Shown: positions 36,778 to 56,544 of the stretch, one piece after another | Numbering within the stretch: the stretch's first letter is position 1 | Layout of the letters: every line of letters begins with the position of its first letter | Origin: Desulforhopalus sp. | GTDB lineage: Bacteria; Desulfobacterota; Desulfobulbia; Desulfobulbales; Desulfocapsaceae | Direction of reading: 5' to 3' | NCBI GenBank assembly: GCA_047622095.1 | Contig: JBLHNU010000011.1 | Location: 41,428 to 105,427 of the forward strand | Length of the DNA: 64,000 nt | Made by a program: the position numbers and the translations under genes | Notes under the pieces: model-generated | Told to the model about the DNA's origin: nothing | The model's database searches: none | The model's input: only the letters and a program-made list of their open reading frames with translations

Positions 36778-36779
36778 GT

Positions 36780-37268
36780 TCAGGGTTTCTCCCGCCCTGC
36801 AATTGGGGTTACAAATTGAGACTCCGTGTCCCATGGAAAAAGGATCCAGGTATCCTGGCTCACTTCGGTAACAAATGTATCCACTAAGGGGCGACCGGCT
36901 GGTTTTGCATATACTGTTGCAAAATGAGCTTTGGGGAGAATGTCTTTGACAAGATTTGCGGTACGCCCAGTATCAACCAAATCATCAATGAGCAGATACC
37001 CTTCCCCATTACCTTCAACAGTTTTCAGAATAGCCGCCTCCCCTTTTTTATCTTTCCAGTCATAACTGGAGATGCAGATGGTGTCGACGAGATGGATATC
37101 AAGCTCTCTTGCAATAATGGCCGCAGGCACCAGACCACCACGGGTAATCGCTATTATTCCTTTAAAATAATCCATATCCAAAAGCCTCCATGACAAGGCT
37201 TTTGAGTCGCGATGCAACTGATCCCAGGAAATAGGGTAGGTCTTTCTGTATGATGAGTTTGTGGACAT
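36780..37268 (-). CDS. gpt: Xanthine-guanine phosphoribosyltransferase
   Basis: [35 protein letters not shown] and [11 protein letters not shown]. Start set at MSTN (ORF track 37349). Confidence 0.93.
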
Positions 37269-37413
37269 AAGTTTCTCCGATAAACTGATAAAAGGGCCGT
37301 TAACAGGCTCAATTCCAATATTTACTTCATTCGAGTTGTAGAGGAACATTGAACAATTACGTCAAATTCAAAGAGTAGAGAATTTGAGTTATAGCATTTT
37401 CCCCAACAAGTAA

Positions 37414-38334
37414 TTAATCGCCCGGCTCTATATTAACACCGAGTGCTCCAGGCTGCTCGGAACTCCCTTTTTTCCAAGAGGAGAGCACCAGAACAAACAC
37501 CGTCAACACATAGGGCAACATGAGTAAGAGCGATGAAGGTAACTGCGTTCCTGATGCCTGCAGTCGCAATTGCAAGGCCATAACTCCTCCAAAGAGGTAC
37601 GCCCCAAAAACAGCACGGCCTGGTCGCCAAAAGGCGAAAATAACGAGTGCAACCGCAATCCAACCACGCCCACCCGTAAGATTCGTCGTCCAGAGATGGG
37701 TGTAAGCAAGAGATAGATACGCTCCTCCAAGACCCATGAAAAAACCGCCTGCTAAAATTCCAAACCAGCGATAATTGACCACATTAAGTCCTGCCGCAGT
37801 TGCCGCCGCAGGATATTCACCAACTGCTCGCAAGCCTAATCCCAGTCGGGTTTTTACAAAAAACAGCCACATGAGTGGCGGAATGCAATAACTAAAATAG
37901 ACGAGTGGGTCATGATTAAAAAAGATTTTGCCAAGAGCAGGAATCTCAGAGAGAACTGGAATAGCGACCGGAGAGAAACCCGGAGCAGAGAGTCCTACGT
38001 AAGGAGTTCCAAGATAATTAGCGAGACCGGCCCCAAGAATGGTCAGAGCAAGGCCCGACACGACTTGATTCCCCTGAAACCAGAGACAAACAACTCCATG
38101 GATTGAAGTCGCCAGACTGCCAACTATACCTGCTGCCAAAAAACCAATTACTGGACTGCCTGTAAATTTTGACACCAAAAATCCAGCAAGAGCGCCCATA
38201 ATCATTGCGCCCTCTACTCCGAGATTAAGTACACCCGATTTTTCCGTAAATATTTCACCAAGGGTGGCATACAGAATCGGAGTCCCCGATTGCACAGCTG
38301 CTGCAAGAAGAGGAATGAGGAGTTCAATTGTCAT
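37414..38334 (-). CDS. Nucleoside ABC transporter permease (NupC-like)
   Basis: GEIFTEKSGVLNLGVEG, LRAVGEYP..A...G, GRGWIAVALVIF and MLPYVLT. Confidence 0.93.
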   Translation of the reverse strand: MTIELLIPLLAAAVQSGTPILYATLGEIFTEKSGVLNLGVEGAMIMGALAGFLVSKFTGSPVIGFLAAGIVGSLATSIHGVVCLWFQGNQVVSGLALTILGAGLANYLGTPYVGLSAPGFSPVAIPVLSEIPALGKIFFNHDPLVYFSYCIPPLMWLFFVKTRLGLGLRAVGEYPAAATAAGLNVVNYRWFGILAGGFFMGLGGAYLSLAYTHLWTTNLTGGRGWIAVALVIFAFWRPGRAVFGAYLFGGVMALQLRLQASGTQLPSSLLLMLPYVLTVFVLVLSSWKKGSSEQPGALGVNIEPGD

Positions 38335-39398
38335 CCCATCCTCCTGCGTTCAATTTTGTAATGTGTAAAGAGTCCACCAGCCAGAACAGTAAGCAGAATA
38401 AGTCCTTCAAGAATACCACCAAAAGCGGCCGGAACCTGCAGATCAAGTTGAAGGTTTTCCACCCCCACCCGTAAACCCGCGAGAAGGATAGATGCGATTC
38501 CTATACTCAGTGGGTTAAGTCGTGCAAGCCAGGCTACAACTATGGCTGTATATCCGTAACCCACCATTATTGAGGGTTGCAACCTGTTGACGGTGGCAGA
38601 TGCTTCAAGAAACCCTGCCCAACCTGCAAAGGCGCCGCTGAGCACCATCACCAAAATAACGAGCCTGTCATACGGTAGACCAGCATAACGAGCTGCAGCA
38701 ACATTGTCTCCACTGGCCTTGAGTTCAAATCCAAGTCGCGTATATTTAAAAAATCCCCACATGAGGATCCCAAGACCAATACAGTGCAGTAGTCCCCAGT
38801 TAACGGAGCTACTGCCGATCTTACCAACAATCGCATTGTCCGAAAAAACTGCTGTCATAGGAAACCCGAAACTGGATGGATCTTTCCATACACCATAAAC
38901 AAGATACTGGAGCAAAAGTATGCCTATGTAGTTCATCATTAAGGTGACAATGATTTCATTTGTACGCATCTTCTGCCGCAATAATGCTGGAATAAGCCCC
39001 CAAAACCCACCACACAACATGGCCATACAAATCATTGCAGGTATAAGAATAAATGAGGGCCAGTCAGGAAAAGAAAGTGCGATCCAGGTAGCACCAATTG
39101 CTCCGAGTGCAAACTGGCCTTCGGCACCAATATTCCAAATTTTCAGGCGAAAAGCGACCGCCACTCCAAGTGAACAAAGGAAAATTGGTATGGCTTTAAG
39201 TACACTATCTTCCAAAGCCCAACGAGAGCCAAAGGCGCCGTAGAATAGCGTTGTTATACCTTTGAGCGGAGGAGTTCCGCCGAGAAACAGTAGAATTCCG
39301 CTTAGGACAAGAGAAAGTGCCAGTGCCAAGAATAAAACAAGACAGGAGCCTCCTAAACTGAGAGGCTCCTGTCTTTTTGTAATGCGCATTTGAAGCAT
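38331..39398 (-). CDS. Nucleoside ABC transporter permease (NupB-like)
   Basis: WNIGAEGQ, NEIIVTLMMNY, GFELKASG.N..AA.YAG and GYGYTAIVVAWLARLNP. Confidence 0.93.
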   Translation of the reverse strand: MLQMRITKRQEPLSLGGSCLVLFLALALSLVLSGILLFLGGTPPLKGITTLFYGAFGSRWALEDSVLKAIPIFLCSLGVAVAFRLKIWNIGAEGQFALGAIGATWIALSFPDWPSFILIPAMICMAMLCGGFWGLIPALLRQKMRTNEIIVTLMMNYIGILLLQYLVYGVWKDPSSFGFPMTAVFSDNAIVGKIGSSSVNWGLLHCIGLGILMWGFFKYTRLGFELKASGDNVAAARYAGLPYDRLVILVMVLSGAFAGWAGFLEASATVNRLQPSIMVGYGYTAIVVAWLARLNPLSIGIASILLAGLRVGVENLQLDLQVPAAFGGILEGLILLTVLAGGLFTHYKIERRRMG

Positions 39399-39556
39399 GA
39401 GGCTTCTATCCGGTTACCCTGCATGAGGGAGACAAATTATAAATGATTCGTAAAAGGGTTGAGTCCACAGTTTAAGCTGACGCAGGCTAGAAGTCAAATC
39501 CAAAAGATTCTATAAAATCGCCTGCGCCCACTCCCATGGAGTTTTACCATACGACT

Positions 39557-40624
39557 CTATTCTGTTGTTCCTACAACGCCTTCTATAAACCAGGTCATAC
39601 CAAGAAGATCAGCGTCAGGAACAATTACACCATCCGCAATTTTCACAGTACCTTTCTGATCCTTTATTGGTCCGACAAAAACCTTTTTCTTACCAGACGC
39701 AATTTCTTCTTTTACGCCATTAGCGATGTCCTGCACTTCCTGTGGAACCATTGGTCCATAAGGAGCAAGGCCGACAATACCTTCAGCAAGCCCTGGCCAT
39801 ACTGACCCAGCTTTCCAGGTTCCCTTTCTTACTTCATCAACCACTTTGGTGTAGTAAGGTGCCCAATTCCAGATTGGAGCAGTCAGATGAGCCTTAGGTG
39901 CAAAAGTTGCCATATCGGTATTATAACCAATTGAATACACGCTTTTTTCTTCAGCAGCTTCCTGAGGTCCAGGGGAGTCCTGATGCTGAGCAATAATATC
40001 AGCACCAACATCTAAAAGCGACTTTGCCGCTTCTTTTTCTGTTGCAGGATCATACCAGGTCTTAGTCCAGACGACCCGTACTTCTGCATCAGGATTTACA
40101 GATTGAACGCCAAGGGCAAAAGCGTTAATTCCGCGTATAACCTCAGGGATTGGAAATGCAGCTACGTAGCCAATAGTATTTGATTTTGTCATTTTCCCAG
40201 CAACGATACCAGAAAGGTACCTTGCCTGGTACATACGACCAAAATAGTTACTCATATTCTCAGACTGCTTGAACCCCGAACAATGCAGGAAGGCAACCTT
40301 AGGAAATTGCTTTGCAACCTTGAGCATAGGATCCATGTAACCAAAACTTGTTGCGAAAATTACATCATATCCTTTTCGCGCCATGTTCAAAATTACACGT
40401 TCGGAATCAGGGCCTTCAGCCACAGACTCAACATAAGATGTGGTTACCCCATCCATAGCTTCCACTGCCTGGCGACCTACATCGTGGGAGTAAGAATAGC
40501 CAGCATCACCAATTGGTGATACATAAACAAAACCAACTTTCATCTCTTTTTCTCCGGCATTGGCCGTAGATATAAAGAGTGATAATGCCAGAACCAACAT
40601 AGCTTTAAACATTTTCATCTTCAA
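39557..40624 (-). CDS. BMP-family purine nucleoside-binding protein (PnrA/TmpC-like)
   Basis: Signal peptide, VGFVYVSPIGDAGY, FATSFGY, GYVAAFPIPEVIRGINAF and QHQDSP. SD GAGGAG. Confidence 0.93.
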   Translation of the reverse strand: MKMKMFKAMLVLALSLFISTANAGEKEMKVGFVYVSPIGDAGYSYSHDVGRQAVEAMDGVTTSYVESVAEGPDSERVILNMARKGYDVIFATSFGYMDPMLKVAKQFPKVAFLHCSGFKQSENMSNYFGRMYQARYLSGIVAGKMTKSNTIGYVAAFPIPEVIRGINAFALGVQSVNPDAEVRVVWTKTWYDPATEKEAAKSLLDVGADIIAQHQDSPGPQEAAEEKSVYSIGYNTDMATFAPKAHLTAPIWNWAPYYTKVVDEVRKGTWKAGSVWPGLAEGIVGLAPYGPMVPQEVQDIANGVKEEIASGKKKVFVGPIKDQKGTVKIADGVIVPDADLLGMTWFIEGVVGTTE

Positions 40625-40730: not shown

Positions 40731-41474
40731 TTAAAGAACCTGCTTTAAGAAAAGTTTCGCCCGGTCTTCCTGTGGGTTGGTAAAAAAGTGTTCTGGAGTC
40801 CCAACTTCAACGACCTTTCCTTCATCCATAAAAATAACACGATCCGCCACTTCTCTAGCAAACCCCATTTCATGGGTTACCACAATCATCGTCATACCTT
40901 CCCGAGCAAGTTGTTTCATAACATCAAGGACTTCACCAACCATTTCCGGATCAAGTGCTGATGTAGGTTCATCAAATAACATCACTTTAGGATCCATAGC
41001 TAGTGCTCTGGCAATGGCAACACGCTGTTGCTGACCACCAGATAGTCTTGATGGATACTCGCCGGCTTTATCATGAATCCCAACCTTTTTCAACAGGGCA
41101 TATGCTTTTTCTTCTGCCTCTTTGTGGCTTCGCTTTCGCACCTTACGTTGTGCAAGTGTGAGGTTTTCAACCACAGTTTTATGGGGAAATAGGTTGAATT
41201 GTTGAAAAACCATACCTACTTCAGCACGTACCTTATTGATATTCGTTTTTTTATCAGCTAGATCAACACCATCTATAATGATGCGCCCTTCTGTGAAAGC
41301 TTCGAGCCCATTAATGCACCTCAGAAACGTCGACTTGCCGGAACCAGAAGGGCCTATTACAACAACGACTTCCCCCTGTGCAACCTCGGTAGACACCCCA
41401 TCGACAGCTCGAACGACACCGACACGGCTATTAAATATTTTGACCACATTCTCTGCTTTAATCACTGACGGCAA
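40731..41474 (-). CDS. Polar amino-acid ABC transporter ATPase (GlnQ-like)
   Basis: [47 protein letters not shown] and VTHEMGFA. Confidence 0.96.
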
Positions 41475-42417
41475 ACCTCCGTTCCATGTAATAGACGATT
41501 TGTGACAATATGGACGTTACCAGTAAATACATGGCGGCGACAACTAGCCATACTTCAAAAGTTGCAAATGTTGAAGTAATGATTTCCCGCCCAGATTTAG
41601 TAAGATCTGTAATGGCAATGACTGAGACGAGAGAGGAATCTTTTATAAGGCTGATAAATTGACCGGAAAGAGGTGGCAGGATTTTTTTTAGAGCCTGGGG
41701 CAATATCACCTCCACCATCGTCTGGAATGAGTTCATTCCAAGAGATCTTGCCGCTTCGGCCTGTCCTTTAGGTATCGCCTGAATACCTGCCCTTACAATC
41801 TCTGCAACGTAGGCTCCCGCAAAAAGAGCAAGTGCTCCAATGCCACAGACATTTCTACTCAAATCAAAAACGGTACCGAGAAAAAAGTAGGCAAGAAAGA
41901 TCTGCACAAGCAGCGGTGTCCCCCTAATACACTCCACATAGATCATTGCAAGACCACGCAAAGTGAAATTCTCGGAGATCCTGGCAAGTCCTGTAAGTAA
42001 ACCTAATACGAGGGCAAACACGCTAGATATGGCTGAAAGCCAGAGGGTTGTCCACAACCCCATCATAAGTGGTCCTAAACGCCACTCCTTAACAAACCCT
42101 ACAGTGTCTCCTTCAAACAGATCCTCACCTTCGCTCACCTCTATACTATCTGACCCGACAGTCAGCGTAAGCTTCTCTGAGGTCTCAGAAACAACTAGAA
42201 TTTCTGCTGTTGCTCCGGATTCTTTGATGCTCTGTACAACACCATCAAATGGAATTTTTTGTGCATCTTCAGCGTGGTAGAGAAAGTACTGGGGAACTCT
42301 GTACCAACGCCACTGATAGTCAATCTTCTGAACCGCACCCCAGGAACCGGCAGCCACCACAAGAAGGATGGCTACCAGCAACAGTTTCCAGGGCCACGTT
42401 TTATTTGTGGCTGTCAA
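41458..42417 (-). CDS. Polar amino-acid ABC transporter permease (HisM/GlnP-like) with periplasmic insertion
   Basis: [34 protein letters not shown] and IKDSSL. About 60 extra residues after TM1. Confidence 0.93.
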
Positions 42418-42435
42418 AATAATGATTCCTTATTT

Positions 42436-43239
42436 TTACTGGATTTCTTTCATCCAAGCGCTATCTTGGAACCATTTTTTATAAATTTTGTCATAAACGC
42501 CGTCATACTTGACCTGAGCCATGAAATTATTCAACCAGTTCAAGAAATCAGCATCACCACGTTTGATAGCCCACGCAAGAGGCTCTTTGGTAAATGGTTC
42601 GTCAAGGTGAACAATTTTACCAACACCTTTTTGTCCAACAGCAATTGTGTTGAATGGTAGGTCGTAAACAAAAGCATCAATCTTACCGTTTACAAGCTCC
42701 ATAACACCTTCTTGCTCTGTCTCATAGGAGATGTATTTTGCATTACCAATCATTCTCTTGGTAGCCTGCTCACCTGTTGTTCCAAGTTTGGAGGCAACAG
42801 TATACTTAGCATTATTTAGATCTCTGTAAGATTTCACAGTATCAGCCAATTCTTTTTTGATAAGAATTGATTGACCAATAAGGATATATGGAGTCGCAAA
42901 GTTTACAGTGAGATTTCTCTGCTGGGTAAGGGTCATACCAGACATGATAACATCAAATTTACCTGTAAGAAGAGCAGGAATGATTCCATCCCAGGCAGTA
43001 GAAACTATTTCCAGCTTTACACCCATGGCCTTAGCCATTCTTTTTCCCATATCTACATCAAAACCAATGATCTCACCCTTCTTATTGGTCAACTCAAAAG
43101 GCATGTAACCAGGTTCCATACCAATGCGAAGAACGCCTCGCTTTTGAATTTCAGTCAAGGCATCAGCTGCAAACACAGAACCGCTTGAAAAAGTGATCAC
43201 CGCCAAAATGACAGCTAACAACAGGCTAATTTTTTTCAT
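42436..43239 (-). CDS. Polar amino-acid ABC transporter substrate-binding protein (family 3)
   Basis: Signal peptide, GYMPFE, GFDVD, WDGIIPALLTGKFD, GMTLT..R and GTTG. Confidence 0.95.
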   Translation of the reverse strand: MKKISLLLAVILAVITFSSGSVFAADALTEIQKRGVLRIGMEPGYMPFELTNKKGEIIGFDVDMGKRMAKAMGVKLEIVSTAWDGIIPALLTGKFDVIMSGMTLTQQRNLTVNFATPYILIGQSILIKKELADTVKSYRDLNNAKYTVASKLGTTGEQATKRMIGNAKYISYETEQEGVMELVNGKIDAFVYDLPFNTIAVGQKGVGKIVHLDEPFTKEPLAWAIKRGDADFLNWLNNFMAQVKYDGVYDKIYKKWFQDSAWMKEIQ

Positions 43240-45449: not shown

Positions 45450-46076
45450 TTAGCGTTCTGTGAAAGCAAGCTTGGCAGCCAAAGAAAGAAAAACAACTCC
45501 AGCAACACGATTAAGTATACGCTCGGGTCTCTGAGATGATCTCAAAAAAGTCCCTATCCATCCGGCAAGAAAACTTATTCCGCCAAAAACCAGAAATGTA
45601 GAAAGTACAAACAGTACACCTAATAGGAGAAACTGCGGTAAAAGAGGACCAGAAGCTGGATCTGTAAATTGTGGCAGAAATGCAAGAAAGAAGATAGAAA
45701 TCTTCGGATTGGTGATATTCATCACAATCCCACGACCATACAATCTTCTCCAGCTCACACCTGATACGCGGACCTGTTGGCTTGATTCCCCTGATGCCTG
45801 CCACGACTGATAGGCAAGATACAAAAGATATGCAGCACCCACATATTTTAATACATTAAATGCCAGCGCCGATGTACTAAACAGCGCGGCAGCACCCAAT
45901 GCTACAGCCAGAGTATGAAATAAAATACCGGTTGATAAACCAAGCGTCACCACAATTCCTGCAAATTTCCCGCGTTGCGCTGCTTGCGCCAAAACGAAGA
46001 GATTATCAGGCCCTGGGGTTACGCCAAGTAGCAACGAAGTCGCAAAGAAAACGGATAAGCTCTCAAAAGACTGCAT
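45450..46076 (-). CDS. LysE/RhtB-family amino-acid exporter
   Basis: TPGPDN, KYVGAAYLLYLA and NITNPK..FFLAFLPQF. Starts 12 bp after the pilH stop. Confidence 0.93.
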   Translation of the reverse strand: MQSFESLSVFFATSLLLGVTPGPDNLFVLAQAAQRGKFAGIVVTLGLSTGILFHTLAVALGAAALFSTSALAFNVLKYVGAAYLLYLAYQSWQASGESSQQVRVSGVSWRRLYGRGIVMNITNPKISIFFLAFLPQFTDPASGPLLPQFLLLGVLFVLSTFLVFGGISFLAGWIGTFLRSSQRPERILNRVAGVVFLSLAAKLAFTER

Positions 46077-46088
46077 AGAAATCAGTAA

Positions 46089-46457
46089 TTAATTAATATT
46101 TTTTTCAATTATTGCTTTCAATTCCTCTTCTTTATACGGTTTCGTCAGGTAATCATCAGCACCTTGCTTTAAGCCCCAAAACTTATCACATGCCTGATCT
46201 TTGCTACTCACAATGACAACCTTTACATCTTTGGTAGTATCATCATTTTTTAATTGTCGACACACCTGAAATCCATTTTTATTCGGCAAAATAACATCAA
46301 GTAAAACCAGATCCGGCTTGTGTTCAATTGCTGCTGCAAGTGCCTTATCACCTTCTACAACCACCACAGTTCTGTACCCTTGATCCAGACAAACAGCTTC
46401 CGCTATCTTTCTTTCAATTGGGCTGTCTTCGACTATTAATATCAGTTTTGCTGCCAT
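46089..46457 (-). CDS. pilH: Single-domain response regulator, PilH-like
   Basis: IVEDSPIE, LLDVILPNKNGFQVCRQL, SSKDQ..DK.WG..QGA.DYLTKP match the PilH pattern. Confidence 0.8.
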   Translation of the reverse strand: MAAKLILIVEDSPIERKIAEAVCLDQGYRTVVVVEGDKALAAAIEHKPDLVLLDVILPNKNGFQVCRQLKNDDTTKDVKVVIVSSKDQACDKFWGLKQGADDYLTKPYKEEELKAIIEKNIN

Positions 46458-46560: not shown

Positions 46561-47040
46561 CTATATAATATTTCCGACAATACCAGCAACATCGGGAACT
46601 ATCCCAACCTTACCCTTCCCCAGAGAATATGCTCCAAGGATATGCTCACTATTTTCAGATGCTGAAAACGTATCCAAAGCAGAAAATGCTCTGGTCAGTT
46701 TAAAAAATTTCGGTGAATCACTTGACTGCACAATGAGTTTCCTCACCTGCTTTTTCTTATCAACCGACCGAAGTACCATATACTTAGAACTCTCGTTTGC
46801 GTTTTGCGCTACAAACCCAAAATACCTTTCCAGTGAAATCACAGGAAGAGCCTCGCCTTGATAGTTTGCCATTACTGTGGCTTTTGACTCATCCACCTGC
46901 TCAAGTTCTTTTACAACAAACTCAAGTTGAGATCGACTAACAATCCAGTACAACTCTTCTTTATCACTACTACTGCAACATGCTCGAACTATCGCCACTT
47001 CAAGATCTGTTCTCATATCCTCATCACCAGCCCCGCTCAT
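46561..47040 (-). CDS. cheW: Divergent CheW-like adaptor (ChpC-like position)
   Basis: YQGEALPVISLERYFG and final GIVPDVAGI strands resemble CheW. Overlaps the kinase stop by 17 bp. Confidence 0.65.
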   Translation of the reverse strand: MSGAGDEDMRTDLEVAIVRACCSSSDKEELYWIVSRSQLEFVVKELEQVDESKATVMANYQGEALPVISLERYFGFVAQNANESSKYMVLRSVDKKKQVRKLIVQSSDSPKFFKLTRAFSALDTFSASENSEHILGAYSLGKGKVGIVPDVAGIVGNII

Positions 47041-50000
47041 TGCGTTTCGCTTCTATTTGTTCTAAAAGTTGGACAAAGCTATCTTCTTCGTATGGCTTGG
47101 TCATATAATAAGCCACACCCAACTCTTTTGCTTTTACTTGATGCTTCTCTGATGCTCTGGAGGTCAACATGATGACAGGAATATCTTTATATGCGTCCCG
47201 GTTATTAATGTTTGACTTAAACTCATAACCATTCATCTTAGGCATCTCAATATCGAGAATAATCACATCAGGAGTAAAATTTTCAAGCCGTACCAGAGCC
47301 TCTAAACCATCAACCGCTTGTTGTTGCGTCCACCCTTGAGATTCTACAAGGCGGGCAATACTGTATCGCACACTGATAGAGTCATCAACAATGAGCACTT
47401 TAAGAGGTTCAGAGCGAATGGGCAGGACTTCAGCTTCCGGCAATAAATGCCTCACCTGTGGCTGCACATCCACCAGCTCCCTGAGATTGAGAATAGGAAT
47501 AAGATCTCCACCACCACTTACTGTTACCCCACCAATCCCTTGTACATGGGTGAGGTGACTTCCTAGGCCTTTTACAATAATTTCGCGCTGCTCTATAATT
47601 TCAGTCACAGACAAAACAAAACTTCTGGAAGCCTCACCGCTTTTGGGTGTTGCCGAAAATAGAATCGCCGCCCCGGATGTCCTCGCTGAGTTATCTTCAA
47701 GCTCAAGATAAGAGGCAAGACTTGAAAAAGTAACAAATTCATCTTTTACAAGAATACTCAGAGCGCCATCTTCATCTCTGATATCTTCCACCTTAAACTG
47801 CCTTATTTCCTCAATATCCTGAAGAGGGACAGCAAAAGAATTACCTGCAACATTTACCAGAACCGCTCTATTCACGGACAGAGTAAAAGGAATATGGATT
47901 TCAAATTTCACCCCTTGCCCAGGGCTATTATCAACCTGAATCGAGCCTCTCAAATCCTGTATGTTTTTCTTTACAACATCAAGCCCTACTCCCCTGCCAG
48001 ATAGCTCAGTTATCTCTTTTTTGGTACTGACACTTGGATAAAAAATGTATTCAAGAACTTCAGAGTCACTGAGCTTTTCCGGGTTATTTACTATAGAGGA
48101 GGTTGATAGCCTTTCTCTGAGCAGGTTCAGATCAATACCAGCCCCATCATCAGAGATATAAAGCACAACATAGCGACTACGCTGTTCTGCACGCAGAGTG
48201 ATCCTTCCTCTGTCTTGTTTTCCCGCAAGACGACGCCTATCAGTTGATTCTATACCATGGTCCACACTATTTCTTAGAATATGTAGCAGTGGGTCTGTCA
48301 CTTTTGCCCAGACAAACCTATCCATGTACACATCTTCACCCACGATGTTCAAATCAACGGGTTTTTCAAGCTTTGCTGATGCGTTGCGAACTGTACTGTA
48401 AAGCACCCTCGATATTGCAGACAATGGAGTCATACGGATACGCATCAATTTATCCTGCATTTGACGCATGGTAAGCTGCTGTTTGGCAACCTGCCCACTA
48501 ATGTTACCGGTCAACGACTGCAGAGTTGAGTAGATTGAATTAACATCTACTGAAATTTCATTAAGAGAACGGATAATAAGATTTAATTCTGAATAGCGAT
48601 CCAGCTCAATAGGATCAAATTCTGACAGCTCCTGTCCCCCATGCTCGTCAAAGTGCATCAGTGGACCTGCGCTACCACTCGGCAATGGTTTCACCCCGTA
48701 AAGAGCCTGTACTTCAAAGCCACTTTCAAGTTCTTGACTTTTCCGTCGTAAATTCTCTTTAACATTTTCCAGGTCACCTAAGGTCTCGGAGACTTCCTCC
48801 ACCATCTTTTCAATGGCTCCACGGGCAACAACCAGCTCTCCTTCAACAGAGAGTAGTTCATCAAGATCATCCAATCGCACCCTAAGGGTTCCTGAATCCT
48901 CCGGCAATATTGGACTCTCTTGCACACCATGCTCAGCCTCAGCCAGCATTCCAATAACGTCTTCCTCTACAACAACATCTTCCTCTTCGACAGTCGCTTT
49001 AGATTTTTCACCAAGGTACCTTTCGATATTTTCCTGCAACTTTAAAGCGGTGTCATTGTCAGGATGCCCAGCAAGTTTTTCCAGCGTCCCTGCACTCTCA
49101 CCAATGAGCTGAACCTCTTGTCTTCCAACAAGTTCATCGTGATCATACAGCCAATCGAGCATGTCCTCCAGAGTATGTGCGGCTCCTGCAAGCAGGTTAA
49201 CACCAGTCATAGAAGCGGCGCCCTTTAAGGTATGTACCGCGCGACGTATTTCGGTTAGTGATTCGATAATTTTCGGTCGATCTGAAGCATCAATGGCGAC
49301 CTGTTTTTCAAGATGGGTCAGCGACGCATTAATGGTGATAAAATGCTCTTCACACTCTTCTTTAAATATTTCAGCAAGAGCTGCTTCTTCCGGATCGACA
49401 GGAAATACAACCGTATTTTCATCTGCGACGTTTACAAGACCACTCTCTACAAGTTCTCCAGTACTTTCTTCTTCAGCAAAGAAATCGTCGTCAGCTGAAG
49501 AACCTTGATCACCCTCAAAAAAATCAAACAGATCCGTTTCATCTTTCTGTTCGCGCTTTTGACTTGTAGAAAACTCCACATCAGAAAGCTCATCTAGGAA
49601 AGAGATCGAATCATTTATATTTTCAGGATCTCCAAACAACTCATCCACAAAAGGCTCCTCTACAGGAGAAGCAACATCTACGAATATTGTCTCTCCAGAT
49701 AAAAGCAAAACCGTAACTTGCTTTAACTGCTTGTAAATCCTTTTAAGAGAATCTGTTCGATCATCATGGTTATCCGAAAAAGCTACCTGTAAAAATCCAA
49801 GGAAATCCCGAACCAGAGCAGTTACCTCGTCCTGATGAGAGTTTCCACCTTCTGCAAGTGAACCCAGTAAGCCACTAAAATCTTGAAACAGAAGTTTTCC
49901 CCCCTCGCCCTCACTTGCTTTAGCGACACCTGCAAGTGTTGCAAAAGCAGAAGACAACTTAATAAAAACATGTCTATTCTGTTTCCTGTGTGTCTCATCA

Positions 50001-50473
50001 TTACCCAGACAAGCCGCCAGTTCATTAAGTAAAGGCAATAAAGATCGAATAGTTTCCAGGGTCTCATCCTCTGAATCCGGTACATCATCTTCAGCATTGG
50101 GCCACACCAGACCTTCCACAACCTTGTAAAATTTTTCCTCTACAGCTGGATCCAAAGATTCGCTTTCAACAAATACATCAAGAAGCTCTATAGTTTTTTT
50201 AACTGAATCTATACCACTCACGATGATGGGGGCGCCTCTTTCAACGATAGCCTCAAGATAATCCTCAACTATTCGTGCACCACGACTCAGACTTGAAAGC
50301 TGAACCTGGGCTGCTGCTCCTTTAATATTGTGAAATAGCCGATGTAGTTCACCTACTGCCTGACGATCCTTTGATGAACGAACCGCACTAAGAGCATGTT
50401 CCATTTCTGGAATATATGATTTTACTTCCTGAAAAAAGAGTTCAAGAAGCTCCGATCTCGAAAAATTCGCCAT
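47024..50473 (-). CDS. chpA: ChpA/CheA-like hybrid kinase (Hpt-pseudoHpt-Hpt-dimer-HATPase-CheW-REC)
   Basis: Hpt HNIKGAA and HTLKGAA, LRVRLDDLDEL, FDPIELDRYSEL (ChpA-type), HILRNSVDHGIE, DDGAGID, SGRGVGLDVV, CheW domain and C-terminal REC LDIEMP. Confidence 0.92.
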   Translation of the reverse strand: MANFSRSELLELFFQEVKSYIPEMEHALSAVRSSKDRQAVGELHRLFHNIKGAAAQVQLSSLSRGARIVEDYLEAIVERGAPIIVSGIDSVKKTIELLDVFVESESLDPAVEEKFYKVVEGLVWPNAEDDVPDSEDETLETIRSLLPLLNELAACLGNDETHRKQNRHVFIKLSSAFATLAGVAKASEGEGGKLLFQDFSGLLGSLAEGGNSHQDEVTALVRDFLGFLQVAFSDNHDDRTDSLKRIYKQLKQVTVLLLSGETIFVDVASPVEEPFVDELFGDPENINDSISFLDELSDVEFSTSQKREQKDETDLFDFFEGDQGSSADDDFFAEEESTGELVESGLVNVADENTVVFPVDPEEAALAEIFKEECEEHFITINASLTHLEKQVAIDASDRPKIIESLTEIRRAVHTLKGAASMTGVNLLAGAAHTLEDMLDWLYDHDELVGRQEVQLIGESAGTLEKLAGHPDNDTALKLQENIERYLGEKSKATVEEEDVVVEEDVIGMLAEAEHGVQESPILPEDSGTLRVRLDDLDELLSVEGELVVARGAIEKMVEEVSETLGDLENVKENLRRKSQELESGFEVQALYGVKPLPSGSAGPLMHFDEHGGQELSEFDPIELDRYSELNLIIRSLNEISVDVNSIYSTLQSLTGNISGQVAKQQLTMRQMQDKLMRIRMTPLSAISRVLYSTVRNASAKLEKPVDLNIVGEDVYMDRFVWAKVTDPLLHILRNSVDHGIESTDRRRLAGKQDRGRITLRAEQRSRYVVLYISDDGAGIDLNLLRERLSTSSIVNNPEKLSDSEVLEYIFYPSVSTKKEITELSGRGVGLDVVKKNIQDLRGSIQVDNSPGQGVKFEIHIPFTLSVNRAVLVNVAGNSFAVPLQDIEEIRQFKVEDIRDEDGALSILVKDEFVTFSSLASYLELEDNSARTSGAAILFSATPKSGEASRSFVLSVTEIIEQREIIVKGLGSHLTHVQGIGGVTVSGGGDLIPILNLRELVDVQPQVRHLLPEAEVLPIRSEPLKVLIVDDSISVRYSIARLVESQGWTQQQAVDGLEALVRLENFTPDVIILDIEMPKMNGYEFKSNINNRDAYKDIPVIMLTSRASEKHQVKAKELGVAYYMTKPYEEDSFVQLLEQIEAKRNERGW

Positions 50474-50514: not shown

Positions 50515-51078
50515 TTAGCTTAAACTCTCTTTTTCAAAATTGACAAGCCGAGGGTGGGTGAGAAACTTTTGAACATTCAGAATGGAATATATTTCCCCAT
50601 CAACAAGAAGATTTTCCTGAAACAAAATCGCGCCGATCGAACTTTCTTTACTCTTTTTGGATGGCTGAATATCGCTCTTGCTTCGTGTAACTGTTCCAAC
50701 AACGGAGTCAACCCCTACACCAACTTTCATTTTTCCTTCCCGTAGTACAAGCAGTTTTTTATCACGCCGCGTATCAGACTTTTCTTCATTCAAAAAACCC
50801 GTAAGATCAATCATTGAAATAATTTCACTCCGAATATTCATGATACCTTTAATCCACTCTGGCAGATTAGGTAGAGATGTAATTTTCGGCATGGAACCAA
50901 CTTCAGCAAGACTATCAATCGTAATTGCAAGAGAACGTGAGCCAATCGCAACGAGGATGTATTTTACCATGGGCTCAGGTGTCACCCCAAAGGACGCTGG
51001 ATCAATGGCATCCATTACACCTTCAAGTTGGCTATCAATACCGTGGATGAGGCTATTTAAATCTGGGTAATTTGTCAT
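50515..51078 (-). CDS. cheW: CheW adaptor (PilI-like)
   Basis: ITSLPNLPEWIKGIMNIRSEIISMIDL, GVGVDSVVG and ILNV. Confidence 0.9.
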   Translation of the reverse strand: MTNYPDLNSLIHGIDSQLEGVMDAIDPASFGVTPEPMVKYILVAIGSRSLAITIDSLAEVGSMPKITSLPNLPEWIKGIMNIRSEIISMIDLTGFLNEEKSDTRRDKKLLVLREGKMKVGVGVDSVVGTVTRSKSDIQPSKKSKESSIGAILFQENLLVDGEIYSILNVQKFLTHPRLVNFEKESLS

Positions 51079-51092
51079 TATAAATGCGTCGG

Positions 51093-52985
51093 TTAAGAAC
51101 GTTCAGCTGTATATTGCGCCACAGTTGAAAGCAGCTTATCTGGATTAAAAGGCTTGGTCAGATATGCAACCGCCCCCGCCTGTAGTCCCTTTTGCCTGTC
51201 TGTTGCACCAAGTTTAGCTGTTAGCATAACCACTGGGATCTTCTGAAATGTTTCATTTGCTTTCAATTGAGCAAGAATATCATAGCCACTCATGTCTGGA
51301 AGCATTGCATCCAACAAAATCAGATCTGGCGCTCCAGTATCTATCAAGCGTAATGCCTCAGCTCCTGTAGTCGCCTCTTGTAGAGAGTATCCTTTACGCT
51401 TTAAAACCATGGAAATCACCTTACATGTCGTAGGGCTATCTTCAACTATGAGAATTGATAAACCACTTGTAGAAACCGGTTTAGGAGGCATTTTCACTTC
51501 AGGAACCACGCTCGTCTTTGCGGTCCTTTTAACAGCTCGTGATATTTTGACCACAGGCGCCTGTGTCACAGGTACCGACACGCGCTTTTTATCATTGCTG
51601 CCCATAAATCGCTCAAGGACTTTAACGAGCTTTGCAGGGTCAAAAGGCTTGGTTAAGTACTCGTTGGCACCACTGGCCAAACCTTTCATGCGATCAACAC
51701 TTGATCTTTTGCCCGTAAGCATGACCACAGGCACCGTTTTTATCCTGTCGTCTGAACGAATCTTAGAGAGTATCTGATACCCATCCATATCCGGCAACAT
51801 CACATCAAGTAAAATCAAATCTGGGAGGACCTGGGCCAGTTGCGCTAGTCCCTCACTCCCTGTAGTCGCTTCTGCGATATCATAACCCTGACGATTAAGT
51901 ACAAGTGAAATCACTTTACGTGATGTCTTACTGTCTTCTATTACCAGAATTGTCTTATTTTTTTCTGGAACCACAGCCGGTTGCAGAGAAGGTACAGGAG
52001 GCTCCTCTACCTTTTTAATCGTCTTCTCTTTTTGAGGCTCATCCTTGACTTTGTCAACAGTGTTCAAGAATTTCGAGGTTTTCAAAAACAATTGTTCATT
52101 TGGCGAAATTATTAAAGCCTTGTTCAAATAGTCCTGAGCCTGTTCTTTCTGGCCAAGTGAAAATTTCCCAAGACAAAGACAATAGGCGATCCGTGAATTC
52201 CCTGGATGATTATTGAGCTCATCTTCATAACGTTTAAGAGATGCTTCAAGCTCTTTATTTCCACCTGGAATTTCTTTTTTGGTAGAAATAGAAAGGAGAC
52301 ATTTACACGTTTCACACTGCTCCTGACCTGTTGCAACAATTGCCCAACAAAAAATACAACGCTTAACAGTCTGTTGTCCTTGATTTATATGAGGTTCTAT
52401 CTTAGCGAGCTCAGCCTTAACCAAAGGGTCATGGCCTCCCCATTTCCTCATTTCATTTATTGCCTTACCCAGATACCCCACCTGATTCATCAATCTGGAA
52501 TGCCATAACCAGGCAGGGTAATAAAACCTATTAGAACGCAGTAATTCTACAAGTTGAGTTACAGCCTCTTTTTTACGGAACTGTAAAATGAGATGAATTA
52601 CTCCATCTAATAGTGCAGCCTCGTCACCAACAACACCCTGCCCTACTTTATATGGAATTTTACTACAAACAAGAACCATCTGTTCATGGGACACGGTGAC
52701 ATTAGAGATCACAGCTTCTGTCGATGTAACAGATTTAAACTCACCCACCTTCTGGGTGAGCAGAGTAAAAAGTGCGCCATTACCACTTATGTTGCCCTGT
52801 ATTGCCGCGACAACCTCACCACTTCTTACCTGGAGAACGCCACTGTATCGCGCTGTATTAACTTCAACATCGAGATCATTTGAGAGAAGACGAAGGGAGC
52901 TTAAATATTCAAGAATGTCTCTACCTCTCTCCTTGAAATCTTCGTGTGATTCATTCATTGCAAAACCCTTGACCTTATATCCCAA
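51093..52985 (-). CDS. Multidomain PilG/PatA-like response regulator (DUF4388-TPR-Zn ribbon-TPR-REC-REC)
   Basis: N-terminal PatA_N-like segment, CIFC-x10-CETC, TPR-like helices, and two receivers with intact Asp/Thr/Lys (LLDVMLP..LTG..KPF; LLDAMLP..LTA..KPF). Confidence 0.8.
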   Translation of the reverse strand: MGYKVKGFAMNESHEDFKERGRDILEYLSSLRLLSNDLDVEVNTARYSGVLQVRSGEVVAAIQGNISGNGALFTLLTQKVGEFKSVTSTEAVISNVTVSHEQMVLVCSKIPYKVGQGVVGDEAALLDGVIHLILQFRKKEAVTQLVELLRSNRFYYPAWLWHSRLMNQVGYLGKAINEMRKWGGHDPLVKAELAKIEPHINQGQQTVKRCIFCWAIVATGQEQCETCKCLLSISTKKEIPGGNKELEASLKRYEDELNNHPGNSRIAYCLCLGKFSLGQKEQAQDYLNKALIISPNEQLFLKTSKFLNTVDKVKDEPQKEKTIKKVEEPPVPSLQPAVVPEKNKTILVIEDSKTSRKVISLVLNRQGYDIAEATTGSEGLAQLAQVLPDLILLDVMLPDMDGYQILSKIRSDDRIKTVPVVMLTGKRSSVDRMKGLASGANEYLTKPFDPAKLVKVLERFMGSNDKKRVSVPVTQAPVVKISRAVKRTAKTSVVPEVKMPPKPVSTSGLSILIVEDSPTTCKVISMVLKRKGYSLQEATTGAEALRLIDTGAPDLILLDAMLPDMSGYDILAQLKANETFQKIPVVMLTAKLGATDRQKGLQAGAVAYLTKPFNPDKLLSTVAQYTAERS

Positions 52986-53028: not shown

Positions 53029-54201
53029 TTACGGACAAACCAGATCGTGAGCTGTGAATATTCCGTCCTCACTGATTTTCACGACAACCGCACATTTTTC
53101 TGGATTCCCGCTTTCATTGAAGGTCATTGTTCCCGTTGCGCCTGCAAAACCTTTTAGCTGGGTTAATGAATCCTTTACTGCTTCGCGATCACTCTGCAAA
53201 TTGCCACTCAAGCCACCCGTGTCTTTGATTGCCTGAATCATTACCCGTACGGCATCCCAGGTAAGAGCTGCCGGCTCATCAGGATATTCACCATACGCCT
53301 TTCTATACGCTTCAACAAAGGTTGCATTGATACCCTTGGCATTTCCAGGCGCATAATTTCCGGTAAAAAAGAGCCCAGCACAATCGGCACCACACTCACC
53401 GACCAGATCACCTCCAGCCCATGAATTACTGCCTACAATCGGCAACGTACTCCCCATCTTTTTGGCTTGCTTTACGATAAGAGGAACTTCGTTAAAGTGT
53501 TGGGGAGTAAAAATAAACTGAGCACCTGCTTTGAATATACTCTGTAGCTGCTTTGAAAAATCGGTAGCCCCTGTCCTGAAGTGTTCATACGCAACGACGG
53601 ACCCTGCACCGTTCTGCGCTTCAAAGGCTTCTTTGAAAGTGCTTGCCATTCCTCTGGAATATGCGTTCAATTCATCATAAAGAACAGCAGCTTTCGTTGC
53701 ATTAAATTCTGATGCAGCAAACTTGGTGATTACCGGCCCTTGAATCGTAAAAACAAAGCAACTACGAAAAATATAAGGTCCTTTTTGGGTCGTCTTGGGA
53801 GATGTTGACCATGGAGTGATCATGGGCGTTGAAAATGCCTGTGCCATCTGAGCGACAGGGATCGCCTGACGACTACTCAGCGGCCCCACTATTCCAAGGA
53901 CCTTCTCATTACTCACCTGACGTACGGTAAGTGATGAGGCGGTAGCTGCTGTGGATTTGTTATCACCATAAATAAATTCAACAGTGTACTTTTTTCCACC
54001 AACAGTGATACCACCAGCAGCATCCAGATCTTTTTTCACAAGTTCTGCTGCATTTTTTGAATGATTACCTACAAGCTCAAACATTCCACTAAATGGAAGA
54101 TTAAAGCCTATTCGAATAACACCATCATTTGCAAAAATTAGGGGGCTCTCCAGAACCAAGAGAACAAGGGTGAGCAAAATTATCGCAATCGTTTTTTTCA
54201 T
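53029..54201 (-). CDS. LivJ/LivK-like periplasmic binding protein (orphan)
   Basis: Signal peptide, IRIGFNLPFSG, GGITVGG, IVGPLSS, ITPWST, IFRSC, AAVLY, TDFSKQL, WDAV and GATGTMTFN. Start set at MKKT (ORF track 54261). Confidence 0.9.
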   Translation of the reverse strand: MKKTIAIILLTLVLLVLESPLIFANDGVIRIGFNLPFSGMFELVGNHSKNAAELVKKDLDAAGGITVGGKKYTVEFIYGDNKSTAATASSLTVRQVSNEKVLGIVGPLSSRQAIPVAQMAQAFSTPMITPWSTSPKTTQKGPYIFRSCFVFTIQGPVITKFAASEFNATKAAVLYDELNAYSRGMASTFKEAFEAQNGAGSVVAYEHFRTGATDFSKQLQSIFKAGAQFIFTPQHFNEVPLIVKQAKKMGSTLPIVGSNSWAGGDLVGECGADCAGLFFTGNYAPGNAKGINATFVEAYRKAYGEYPDEPAALTWDAVRVMIQAIKDTGGLSGNLQSDREAVKDSLTQLKGFAGATGTMTFNESGNPEKCAVVVKISEDGIFTAHDLVCP

Positions 54202-54381
54202 TCGTATCTCCACTCTATACAAAGAGGACTTCTCAAAAAACATCAATCTCAATGGATGCACTTTAGTGCCTAACTCATTTCAACCTGTCGCATACAAGAA
54301 AATGGAGAGAGCGCCAAAGGCTTACAATTTAAATGCAGAGCCAAAGCACCCGTCCTTTTCATTGTGGGTAGACCTGTATCT

Positions 54382-56544
54382 TTATGCCGCTTCATCCGTA
54401 CCAATTTTAAATACGTCTACAGCCGAACGCAGATCTCGCGCAGTCTTACTGAGGATATTCATTGAAGCCGCTGTATCCTGAGTCGACAGTGAAGATTCCC
54501 TGCTAACTTCACCAACCTCCTCCATGGTCTTGGAGATGGTTTCTGACATTTTTACTTGGTTGTCTGTAGCACCAGTGATCGCCTCAATCAGCTCTGCAAG
54601 CTGCCTGGAAACTTGTTCAATTTCCTGCAACTTACCATGGGCACCATCAGCCAGTTGTGAGCCCGCCACAACCTTACTAATACTTGTATCAATTCGTGAG
54701 GTGAGATCTTTGATCTCAGCCTGAATACTTTTGACAAGAACCTCAATTTGCTTCGTTGAGTTACTCGAACTATCTGCAAGACGCTGCACCTCATCGGCCA
54801 CCACCGCAAAACCGTGACCAGCATCCCCCGCCATAGCTGCCTGAATAGATGCGTTCAGTGCCAGGATCGATGTTCTGTCAGCGATATCATCAATAATCTG
54901 AACGATATTTCCAATTTCAAGAGAACTTTCTCCAAGACGCTTAACGGAACGAGCAGTCTCATTAATCTCTTCACGTATCTCAGACATCGCCTTATTGGTT
55001 TCCTGGACAGCCTCCGCACCTTCTTGGGCGTTAATTCTGGACTGCTTGGAAACAGTAGCTGACTGCTGGGCATTTTCCGCAACAATTTTAATGGAACCCA
55101 CCATCTCATCGATAGCTTCTACCGCTAAAGTAACTCCCTTAACCTGATCGATATTCTTTTCAGCAAGGTCCATAGTTTGACGGGAAACTTCTTCTGAAGT
55201 TACACCAACCGCCTTAGTTGCTACTTTAACTTTTGAAATAATATCAGTAAATTGATCCGCCATGGCATTAAAGGAGTCAGCAATAGCACCGGTTACATCC
55301 TCTGTTACCTCTGCACGCGCGGTAAAATCACCATCACTCAGCGAACTGATTTCTTCAAGAAGCTTCATGATCGATTCCTGGATGGCATTTCGTTCATCCT
55401 GGCTCTGAATAAGAATTGTTATATTATCGAGCATACTGTTCAGAGTAACCGCCATCACACCAAGTTCATCATCACTTACCACCTCAGTTCTTGCCTGATA
55501 ATTCTCTTGCTCCATCTCCCCAAGCAGCCCCATAATGTGATCAACTTGATTTGTTAGACCTCGGGAAAGTCGTACAGCTATGAAAATCGCAAAAAGAACA
55601 GCTATAATACCAACACCCAGAACAATTTTAAGAACCATTGCTGAGGTGTCTTCCATAGCCTTAGTAGCGGCGGTCTCATTTTTAACCGCGCCAGCTAGAA
55701 GAGAACGAATAGCAGGTTCCGCATTCGCTGCAGCACTCTGATACGCCTGAATACGTTGAACAATTTCCCCATCTGTTTTCTTTACATCTCCATACCACTT
55801 CGTAAATTCACCAAGGGTATCCTCAAGGGCTTTTTTATCTTTGGCTGGAATAGCTGGCCATTTCGCAAAGGTAACGAGTTTATCTTGTTCAGCTAGGACC
55901 TTGCTCGCATTCTCAGGGGACTGAACCATCAAATAATCTTGCAGAGCGGACTTAAGTAGAAAAAATTGATTCTTCACTTTCGTTGATGGAGTTACTTTTG
56001 TCGCTTCACCAAGAGCCACCATACTTGCATCAAGATTGACCAGCTCTCCAAATTCTTTATCAACCCGAAGCTCCAAAATATCGACAGTTCCTACAAAGGC
56101 ACTCAGGTATTCATTAATAGAATCCGTAGCAGATTGAGCCGCTTCTTTTTCCTCTGGAGACACAGCCAGGTTCTGAATTTCAGACAAGGTTTGATACGTT
56201 TGTCCACCGCCGGTAATAAATGGTCCAAGATACTTCTCTTTGGCCTCACGAATACCTATCTGCTCATGCTGCAGGAGAAAATCTTTTTCATAGCCCTGCA
56301 TAACTCGCAATGAATTTTCAGTTTCAAGGCTGAGACGCGCAATCTTACTATGAACCTGAACCAGCTCGTTGATAGTTCGTCTTGCATACGTTTGTGAAAT
56401 CAATGTAATTGCAATCACAACAAGTGTAAGTGCGATAATGATCATAAACGACCAGAGCAGCTTTCCTTGAATTTTCCGACGTCCGACAGATTTAATTATA
56501 TCGGTATTTTCGTCTTCAATTTCATTAGTTCTTGCTTCCATCAC
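54382..56544 (-). CDS. pilJ: Methyl-accepting chemotaxis protein, PilJ-like, with HBM/double-4HB-like sensor
   Basis: TM1, about 260-aa helical periplasmic domain (EKDFLL motif), TM2, two HAMPs, [16 protein letters not shown] and [30 protein letters not shown] (PilJ-type tip). Confidence 0.88.

Follow-up and report, generated by a model that had tools for sequence, protein, structure and literature searches.

A 64,000-nucleotide stretch of DNA from Desulforhopalus sp., referred to here as the window, carries a chemosensory operon in which the gene for a periplasmic binding protein (PBP) lies directly downstream of the gene for a methyl-accepting chemotaxis protein (MCP). This PBP is probably a dedicated protein, independent of any transporter, that relays a non-amino-acid ligand to the adjacent MCP. 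It is regarded as a partner of the MCP because the two genes are adjacent in two different operon layouts, the two proteins co-occur across genomes, the PBP descends from a transporter-linked protein and has a remodelled pocket, and the sensor of the MCP has decayed convergently in lineages that lack the PBP. The window corresponds to contig C11:41428-105427 of a source genome of 5.9 Mb that is 98.6% complete; going by the names of close homologues, it belongs with Desulforhopalus and Desulfotalea-like Desulfobulbales. A literature search found no paper on this PBP-MCP module of the Desulfobulbales. The pair comprises the following features.

54382..56544, minus strand: MCP of 720 amino acids, with a first transmembrane segment (TM1), a helical periplasmic sensor of ~250 amino acids, a second transmembrane segment (TM2), a HAMP domain and a signalling domain; Pfam matches to HAMP and MCPsignal
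55639..56388, minus strand: periplasmic sensor domain of the MCP (approximately residues 53-302), predicted to be all-helical and HBM-like in fold, unmatched in Pfam
54202..54381, minus strand: spacer of 180 nucleotides between the MCP and PBP genes, with GGAG before the ATG at 54201
53029..54201, minus strand: secreted type-I PBP of 390 amino acids, Peripla_BP_6 family, with a signal peptide at approximately residues 1-24

The open reading frame of the PBP spans 54261..53029. Translation very probably begins at the ATG at 54201, as GGAG precedes it by 7-10 nucleotides; orthologues are 390 amino acids long and begin with MKK. With this start, the gap between the MCP and PBP genes is 180 nucleotides, while the gap between the PBP gene and the next gene of the operon (at 52985) is exactly 43 nucleotides. 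Both gaps and the positions of the reading frames are as given in a preliminary description of this DNA, which was made from the sequence alone.

Conservation of the gene pair

Is the adjacency of the two genes a property of this genome or of a wider group? A sample of 301 Desulfobulbales genomes was searched with the first 329 residues of the MCP and with the PBP. The two genes are neighbours in 12 genomes of the same genus. They are also neighbours in 12 genomes of another family, f17 (by name, Desulfogranum belongs to it), where the MCP sensors are 40-49% identical to that of the window. In 20-kb contexts around the PBP matches, the gene order MCP-PBP-response regulator-CheW-CheA-CheW-CheY recurs in 10 further genomes of the genus and in G303. 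The operon of family f17 is arranged as CheA-CheW-CheW-M16 peptidase-MCP-PBP, followed by unrelated genes. Thus, the MCP and PBP genes remain neighbours in operons that are otherwise arranged differently. Named species representatives were gathered by a pattern scan, and at 23 of their 33 loci the MCP gene immediately precedes the PBP gene; carriers of the pair include Desulfopila aestuarii DSM 18488, Desulfopila sp. IMCC35006 and IMCC35008, Desulfosediminicola flagellatus IMCC35005, Desulforhopalus sp. IMCC35007 and Desulfogranum mediterraneum DSM 13871.

The phyletic coupling of the two proteins extends beyond their adjacency. PBP matches are bimodal across the 301 genomes, with 20 genomes holding a match of at least 50% identity. 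All 20 carry the MCP sensor (at least 40% identity), including three in which the genes are unlinked, and a PBP at this threshold was found in none of the sampled genomes that lack the MCP. In three genomes of the same genus (G008, G237 and G013) the PBP orthologue lies away from the operon. Genomes of the same group are not independent of each other in this comparison, but the coupling is seen in two families. It does not hold for all distant homologues of the sensor. The notion that each of them is linked to a PBP was rejected, since MCPs whose sensors are at most 36% identical, together with several other distant matches, have no adjacent PBP. The association is limited to particular sensor subfamilies.

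At one locus of family f17 (L038, G118:C1, 11452-12741), an M16-family peptidase gene separates the CheW genes from the MCP-PBP pair.

Sensor decay in lineages without the PBP

What becomes of the sensor where the PBP is absent? G020 and G226 possess the operon but have no PBP of the che-linked clade anywhere in the genome; these two genomes are nested in different subclades of the genus, and a third PBP-less lineage, G279, belongs to family f17. The 26 MCPs of PBP-bearing genomes, taken across both families, all share the same residue at 33 sensor positions. Nine of these invariant positions are broken in G020, eight in G226 and nine in G279. The breaks coincide to a considerable extent: Y117, F165 and Y268 are broken in all three lineages, and L168, Q202, W250 and V254 in two of the three each. 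Every one of these residues is invariant in the MCPs of PBP-bearing genomes. When the PBP-bearing MCPs were left out one at a time, the mean number of breaks was 0.77 and the maximum was 6. Within the genus alone, 25 and 18 of 83 positions are broken in the PBP-less genomes, against a maximum of 9 in the others. The cytoplasmic domain served as a control, with 181 invariant positions, of which 5 are broken in G020, 3 in G226 and 12 in the more distant G279. The sample for these comparisons is small, comprising three PBP-less lineages. Convergent breaks of this kind would be expected if the PBP constrains the surface of the sensor, and the broken invariant residues are candidate positions of an interface.

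The decay bears on another explanation of the pair, namely that the MCP senses its ligand directly and the PBP is a separate ligand buffer or competitor, or the partner of some other sensor, with no docking between the two. We consider this rather improbable. HBM domains such as that of McpS, the top PDB match of the sensor model (2yfa, 2yfb), do bind ligands themselves, and the source genome pairs other Peripla_BP_6 genes with kinases. A recent paper (PMC13556227), going by its title, reportedly describes a receptor that competes with solute-binding proteins (SBPs) for ligand. Competition alone, however, leaves unexplained why invariant sensor residues are lost exactly where the PBP has been lost, and why the PBP clade is strictly nested within MCP-bearing genomes.

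The sensor domain of the MCP

Residues 51-303 of the MCP have no Pfam match even at E<=10 and, thus, none to the HBM profile PF16591. An AlphaFold2 model of the sensor, built on 38 homologues, has a mean predicted local distance difference test (pLDDT) score of 89.4 and consists of helices throughout; the first and the last are long, and the four or five others are short. The top match to this model found by Foldseek in the PDB is the HBM domain of McpS (2yfa, 2yfb; E 1e-4, probability 1.0), with a template-modelling score (TM-score) of only 0.39-0.48 and a root-mean-square deviation of 18 Å. PilJ (7zjr) is a weaker fold match, and the 50 best Foldseek matches do not include TorS. The sensor can fairly be described, on the strength of its model, as HBM-like in fold, but not as a sequence member of the Pfam HBM family. 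The "large HBM-like helical domain" of the preliminary description, therefore, stands at the level of fold, by the AlphaFold2 model and Foldseek, and does not extend to membership of the Pfam family. Some sources name orthologues of the MCP "PilJ", and the label comes only from these names.

Ancestry and ligand pocket of the PBP

The PBP matches the Peripla_BP_6 family (PF13458) at 6.4e-55, with 187.6 bits against a cut-off of 31.7; the LivJ-type model of NCBIfam gives 104 bits, below its cut-off of 477. Its AlphaFold2 model (pLDDT 91.5) has the standard type-I two-lobe alpha/beta fold, and the nearest folds found in the PDB by Foldseek are 3TD9 and 4GNR, with TM-scores of 0.80-0.85. Read by eye, the N-terminus is a hydrophobic signal, MKKTIAIILLTLVLLVLESPLIFA, which is seemingly cleavable and has no lipobox cysteine.

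From which proteins does the PBP descend? Matches at 44-49% identity are widespread, and 10 of the 16 whose loci were examined are encoded immediately ahead of LivH-LivM-LivG-LivF. A maximum-likelihood tree unites the che-linked PBPs with dispersed copies that nest among them, and places the transporter-linked PBPs as the sister of this che group. The che group has moderate support (84/95), and the position of the root is uncertain owing to long outgroup branches. The tree indicates descent from a transporter PBP, and the che-linked lineage appears to have arisen by duplication of a LivHMGF-linked binding protein. Extra copies of the che clade are found outside che loci (L014, L022, L024 and L026-L030), and some of them adjoin KaiC-like or unrelated ABC genes. 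Certain extra copies have a changed pocket (T102A, F121V). All of the genomes that hold extra copies, changed or not, also carry the MCP.

The pocket was read by aligning the PBPs to LivJ and LivK of Escherichia coli MG1655, to 4GNR and to 3TD9, using the ligand-contact positions listed for LivJ in PMC6983066 and, in addition, position 226. The pocket residues of the window PBP correspond to LivJ positions as follows.

W131: LivJ position 100
T133: LivJ position 102
S134: LivJ position 103
F151: LivJ position 121
Y181: LivJ position 150
H235: LivJ position 202
N259: LivJ position 226
W261: LivJ position 228

Position 226 is acidic in LivJ, LivK, 4GNR and 3TD9; from the structural literature on LivJ and LivK, we take it to be where the alpha-ammonium group is contacted. 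In the sister clade (16 PBPs), position 103 is N, with D121 in 16 of 16, Y202 in 13 of 16 and D226 in 16 of 16; LivJ/LivK and the 4GNR and 3TD9 alignments have the same kinds of residue at these positions. The 25 che-linked PBPs instead have S103 (22/25), F or Y at 121 (20/25), H202 (23/25) and N226 (23/25), while S79, T102 and Y150 are kept in both groups alike. The changed residues in the window PBP are S134, F151, H235 and N259. The preliminary description had singled out the motifs ITPWSTSP, YSRGM and QHFNE as altered relative to LivJ. All three are present and cover LivJ contact positions 100-103, 150 and 202, and the alignment of 25 against 16 PBPs bears out the altered pocket and extends it, in that the change defines the che-linked clade.

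By alignment, the window PBP lacks the residues that contact alpha-amino acids (Y202 and E226 of LivJ, and D121). Both acidic side chains have been lost and, therefore, the ligand of the PBP is probably not a free alpha-amino acid. A carboxylate that lacks an alpha-ammonium group is one candidate, a suggestion that is made with low confidence.

Two other loci arrange PBP genes differently. At L045 (G266:C61, 5306-8043; family f17), two tandem PBPs follow the MCP. The first of them, adjacent to the receptor, keeps the amino-acid-type Y202 and D226, and the second has H202 and N226. With such tandem PBPs, a single receptor may receive two ligand inputs. At L085 (G002:C44, 5649-8140), in the closest relative genome, a PBP gene is convergent to an MCP-like gene; its product is nearest to the transporter-linked sister clade, being 51% identical to it and 44% to the window PBP.

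Is there a transporter for the PBP?

No LivHMGF genes were found in the operon or in the 64-kb window. The transport genes of the window that bear on this question are the following.

35272..36834: fused double ATPase of a PnrA/Bmp-type importer
37414..39398: two BPD_transp_2 permeases (the Pfam family of LivH and LivM) of the PnrA/Bmp-type importer
39557..40624: Bmp/PnrA-type binding protein
40731..43239: polar-amino-acid ATP-binding cassette (ABC) system

The PnrA/Bmp-type importer (35272-40624) is the sole BPD_transp_2 system in the window. It includes a phosphoribosyltransferase gene, lies 13.6 kb from the PBP and, judged from its binding protein and fused ATPase, is a nucleoside-type importer and not a Liv system. 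The earlier claim that the window has no Liv permease or ATPase is accurate in that no Liv system is present, but permeases of the same Pfam family do occur. Genome-wide, the source genome has 11 BPD_transp_2 and 11 Peripla_BP_6 matches. There are three Liv-type clusters (on contigs C20, C65 and C42), each with its own PBP. No permease in the source genome is orthologous to those of the sister clade, the best matches being 37% identical for LivH and 33% for LivM, whereas the window PBP is 49% identical to the sister-clade PBP.

Could the PBP nevertheless be an ordinary uptake protein for a distant Liv-type ABC transporter, with its place in the che operon due to co-regulation or chance? This is quite unlikely. 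The Peripla_BP_6 family is overwhelmingly transport-related, the sister clade is linked to LivHMGF, and the source genome holds three Liv-type systems; moreover, orphan PBPs of this family are common, some copies of the che clade lie outside che loci, and adjacent sbp and sensor genes can be functionally unlinked (PMC11113362). However, uptake alone does not account for the fact that all three Liv systems come with a PBP of their own and include no orthologue of the sister-clade permeases, nor for the absence of the che PBP clade from every genome without the MCP in the 301-genome sample, the retention of the pair across two operon layouts, or the decay of MCP sensor residues where the PBP is absent. 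The preliminary description, which had proposed that the PBP captures a ligand and docks on the receptor, named as the case against itself a PBP that works for a distant Liv transporter and is uncoupled from the MCP. The outcome favours the description: the permeases are non-orthologous, and the PBP co-occurs with the MCP.

A dual role, in which the PBP both feeds a transporter and signals to the MCP in the manner of MBP, RBP, DppA and PstS, is also unlikely. All characterised bacterial cases of an SBP acting on a chemoreceptor use transporter SBPs (PMC8050422, PMC4926252), and the PBP descends from a LivHMGF-linked protein. On the other hand, the source genome has no linked or orthologous permease, and the pocket is unlike those of the transporter-linked sisters.

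Proposed mechanism and points against it

The data show the gene order, the phyletic coupling, the descent from a transporter PBP, the remodelled pocket and the decay of the sensor where the PBP is missing; the class of ligand, the docking and the output of the PBP-MCP system are what we infer from them. In the proposed mechanism, the PBP would be exported to the periplasm, where it would close on a small ligand. The ligand-closed form would then dock on the membrane-distal part of the helical sensor of the MCP, and the docked PBP would modulate CheA in a chemosensory pathway of the Chp or type IV pilus (TFP) kind. After the recruitment of the PBP beside the MCP, its pocket lost two acidic residues and a tyrosine that are characteristic of alpha-amino-acid binders, through the changes D121 to F or Y, Y202 to H and D226 to N.

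Several points weigh against a dedicated receptor partner. Adjacent sbp and sensor kinase genes need not be functionally linked (PMC11113362), and adjacency alone is given little weight here because that study warns that such neighbours need not interact. Coevolution of the PBP with the periplasmic domain of the MCP had been suggested as a check in the preliminary description; co-inheritance of the two is apparent, but there is no sensor-specific signal, the mirror-tree correlation of the PBP being 0.90 with the sensor and 0.91 with the cytoplasmic domain. The terminal branches of the sensor are long in PBP-less genomes (0.83 and 0.56), but those of the cytoplasmic domain are long too. Extra che-clade copies of the PBP are found outside che loci in several genomes, and in three genomes the only copy is unlinked from the operon. 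It could also be that the three resident Liv-type transporters accept the PBP promiscuously. Finally, the geometry of the pocket and of the interface is inferred from alignments, not from model coordinates.

Two analyses were set aside. The mirror-tree comparison and a partial Mantel test were rejected as evidence of docking, since the PBP tracks both domains of the MCP equally and the result reflects co-inheritance only. Acceleration of the sensor branch in PBP-less genomes was not used as evidence, the ratios of 6.8 and 3.3 being within the range of the other genomes.

The chemosensory operon

The MCP and the PBP head a tight string of minus-strand genes, in the order MCP, PBP, REC-REC, CheW, CheA-REC, CheW, CheY and LysE exporter. 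The operon has neither CheB nor CheR. The genes downstream of the PBP are as follows.

51093..52985, minus strand: REC-REC response regulator of 630 amino acids, with a 340-residue N-terminal region followed by two receiver domains
50515..51078, minus strand: CheW (Pfam match)
47024..50473, minus strand: CheA-type kinase of 1149 amino acids, with two histidine phosphotransfer (Hpt) stretches, a dimerisation domain, HATPase, a CheW-like domain and a C-terminal receiver, in a ChpA-like layout
46561..47040, minus strand: second CheW-like protein (Pfam match)
46089..46457, minus strand: single-domain response regulator of the CheY type (Pfam match)
45450..46076, minus strand: LysE-family exporter, 12 nucleotides past cheY

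A promoter and terminator scan found no terminator-like site in the spacer between the MCP and PBP genes and one such site between the upstream transketolase gene and the MCP, but this is weak evidence because the counts of sites did not exceed those in shuffled sequence.

The gene after the PBP had been described as PilG-like. Its product does have receiver domains, but at 630 amino acids, with a 340-residue N-terminal region and two receivers, it does not strictly resemble PilG. The N-terminal region has weak TPR matches and a Cys4 motif (CxxC-x10-CxxC), and a Pfam scan at E<=10 detected neither DUF4388 nor PATAN in it. Homologues with 35-62% identity hold the same position in operons that share the layout of the source genome, while no clear homologue was found in the operons of family f17. 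Among the orthologous operons examined, 8 have the LysE-family exporter and 6 lack it; it is an optional passenger and not a fixed part of the system.

Parallel pairs of binding proteins and sensors

The source genome contains other arrangements in which a Peripla_BP_6 gene accompanies a sensor. A search with the MCP sensor matched the N-terminal domain of a hybrid histidine kinase of 1028 amino acids on contig C83 (22% identity, E 2e-11), which has HAMP, PAS, HisKA, HATPase and REC domains. A gene for a Peripla_BP_6 lipoprotein is located 25 nucleotides upstream of this kinase (C83:11443-16825; L051:4443-8825), and the same pairing recurs in 7 of the 8 genomes that have the hybrid kinase.

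Elsewhere in the genome, a transporter-less Peripla_BP_6 gene on contig C10 (53440-57733) is followed by genes for an 809-amino-acid membrane protein and a 221-amino-acid regulator-like protein, and another on contig C20 (66952-70671) by genes for proteins of 279 and 571 amino acids. These two loci may be further PBP-sensor pairs.

It is tempting to speculate that the helical sensor is a general docking platform for dedicated type-I PBPs in the Desulfobulbales, used by both the MCP and the hybrid kinase, each with a co-inherited Peripla_BP_6 protein. Dispersed PBP paralogues with altered pockets would then feed further ligands into the same receptor, and the specificity of the che-linked PBP would have shifted from amino acids towards a carboxylate of another kind. 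This extended scheme is tentative and, taken as a whole, somewhat doubtful. If true, it would give the Chp-like pathway a defined chemical input.

Implications

A dedicated SBP linked to a receptor is a type that has been documented in a haloarchaeon; the present pair would place it in a bacterial lineage. It would also outline a bacterial path by which an uptake protein becomes the partner of a sensor: duplication of a LivHMGF-linked protein, loss of the link to the transporter, remodelling of the pocket and strict co-occurrence with the receptor. Natural losses of the PBP point to candidate interface residues, and a sensor-domain family that has gone unannotated is brought to attention. Because a soluble PBP is easily screened for ligands, it gives direct access to the signal that a Chp-like pathway receives in sulfate-reducing bacteria of sediments. 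Cultured strains carry the MCP-PBP module, which makes the proposal testable.

Comparison with known systems

In Halobacterium, the gene for BasB, a Peripla_BP_6 protein that is a signalling-linked SBP, is found just upstream of the gene for the transducer BasT (PMC8050422). The BasB-BasT and CosB-CosT systems of Halobacterium salinarum resemble the present pair in having a LivJ-like Peripla_BP_6 protein beside a transducer, without transporter genes, in chemotaxis (PMC8050422). BasB-BasT differs in being archaeal and in the position of BasB upstream of a dCache-like transducer, and it senses branched-chain and sulphur amino acids. Here, by contrast, the pair is bacterial, the PBP is encoded downstream of an HBM-like receptor in a Chp-like operon, and the acidic pocket residues of the amino-acid type have been lost.

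Two other systems couple a binding protein to a helical sensor. In phosphate chemotaxis of Pseudomonas aeruginosa, ligand-loaded PstS binds the chemoreceptor CtpL, whose sensor is of the HBM type and helical (PMC8050422 Table 1; PMC4926252); binding of this kind is proposed for the present pair. PstS comes from another SBP family and has a dual role as a component of the Pst transporter, and it is not encoded beside ctpL. TorT docks on the HBM-like sensor of TorS (PDB 3O1H; PMC8050422). The TorT-TorS system, which responds to trimethylamine N-oxide (TMAO), shares with the present pair a dedicated, transport-independent type-I PBP beside an HBM-like helical sensor, with docking seen for TorT and TorS. 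It differs in that its output is a histidine kinase and not an MCP, and in that TorT is a Peripla_BP_1 protein. The pair of PBP and hybrid kinase on contig C83 is the closer analogue of TorT-TorS in the source genome.

LivJ and LivK of E. coli, which work with LivHMGF, share the fold and the Pfam family of the PBP, together with S79, T102 and Y150. Compared with them, the PBP has no adjacent or orthologous LivHMGF, and it differs by the changes Y202 to H, E226 to N, D121 to F and A100 to W. The operon as a whole resembles the Pil-Chp system of Pseudomonas, of the TFP class, in its multi-Hpt CheA with a C-terminal receiver, two CheW proteins, a single CheY and the absence of CheB and CheR. It differs from Pil-Chp in that the sensor is not a Pfam PilJ domain, a 630-amino-acid REC-REC protein is present, a PBP is embedded in the operon and no pilus genes are linked to it. 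No pilus genes were found in the window; PilM and flagellin genes occur elsewhere in the source genome, which encodes about 17 MCPs. The pair would work in the manner of BasB-BasT or TorT-TorS, and is set apart by the combination of a bacterial host, an unannotated HBM-like sensor, a Chp-like operon without CheB or CheR and a pocket that appears to be re-tuned away from amino acids.

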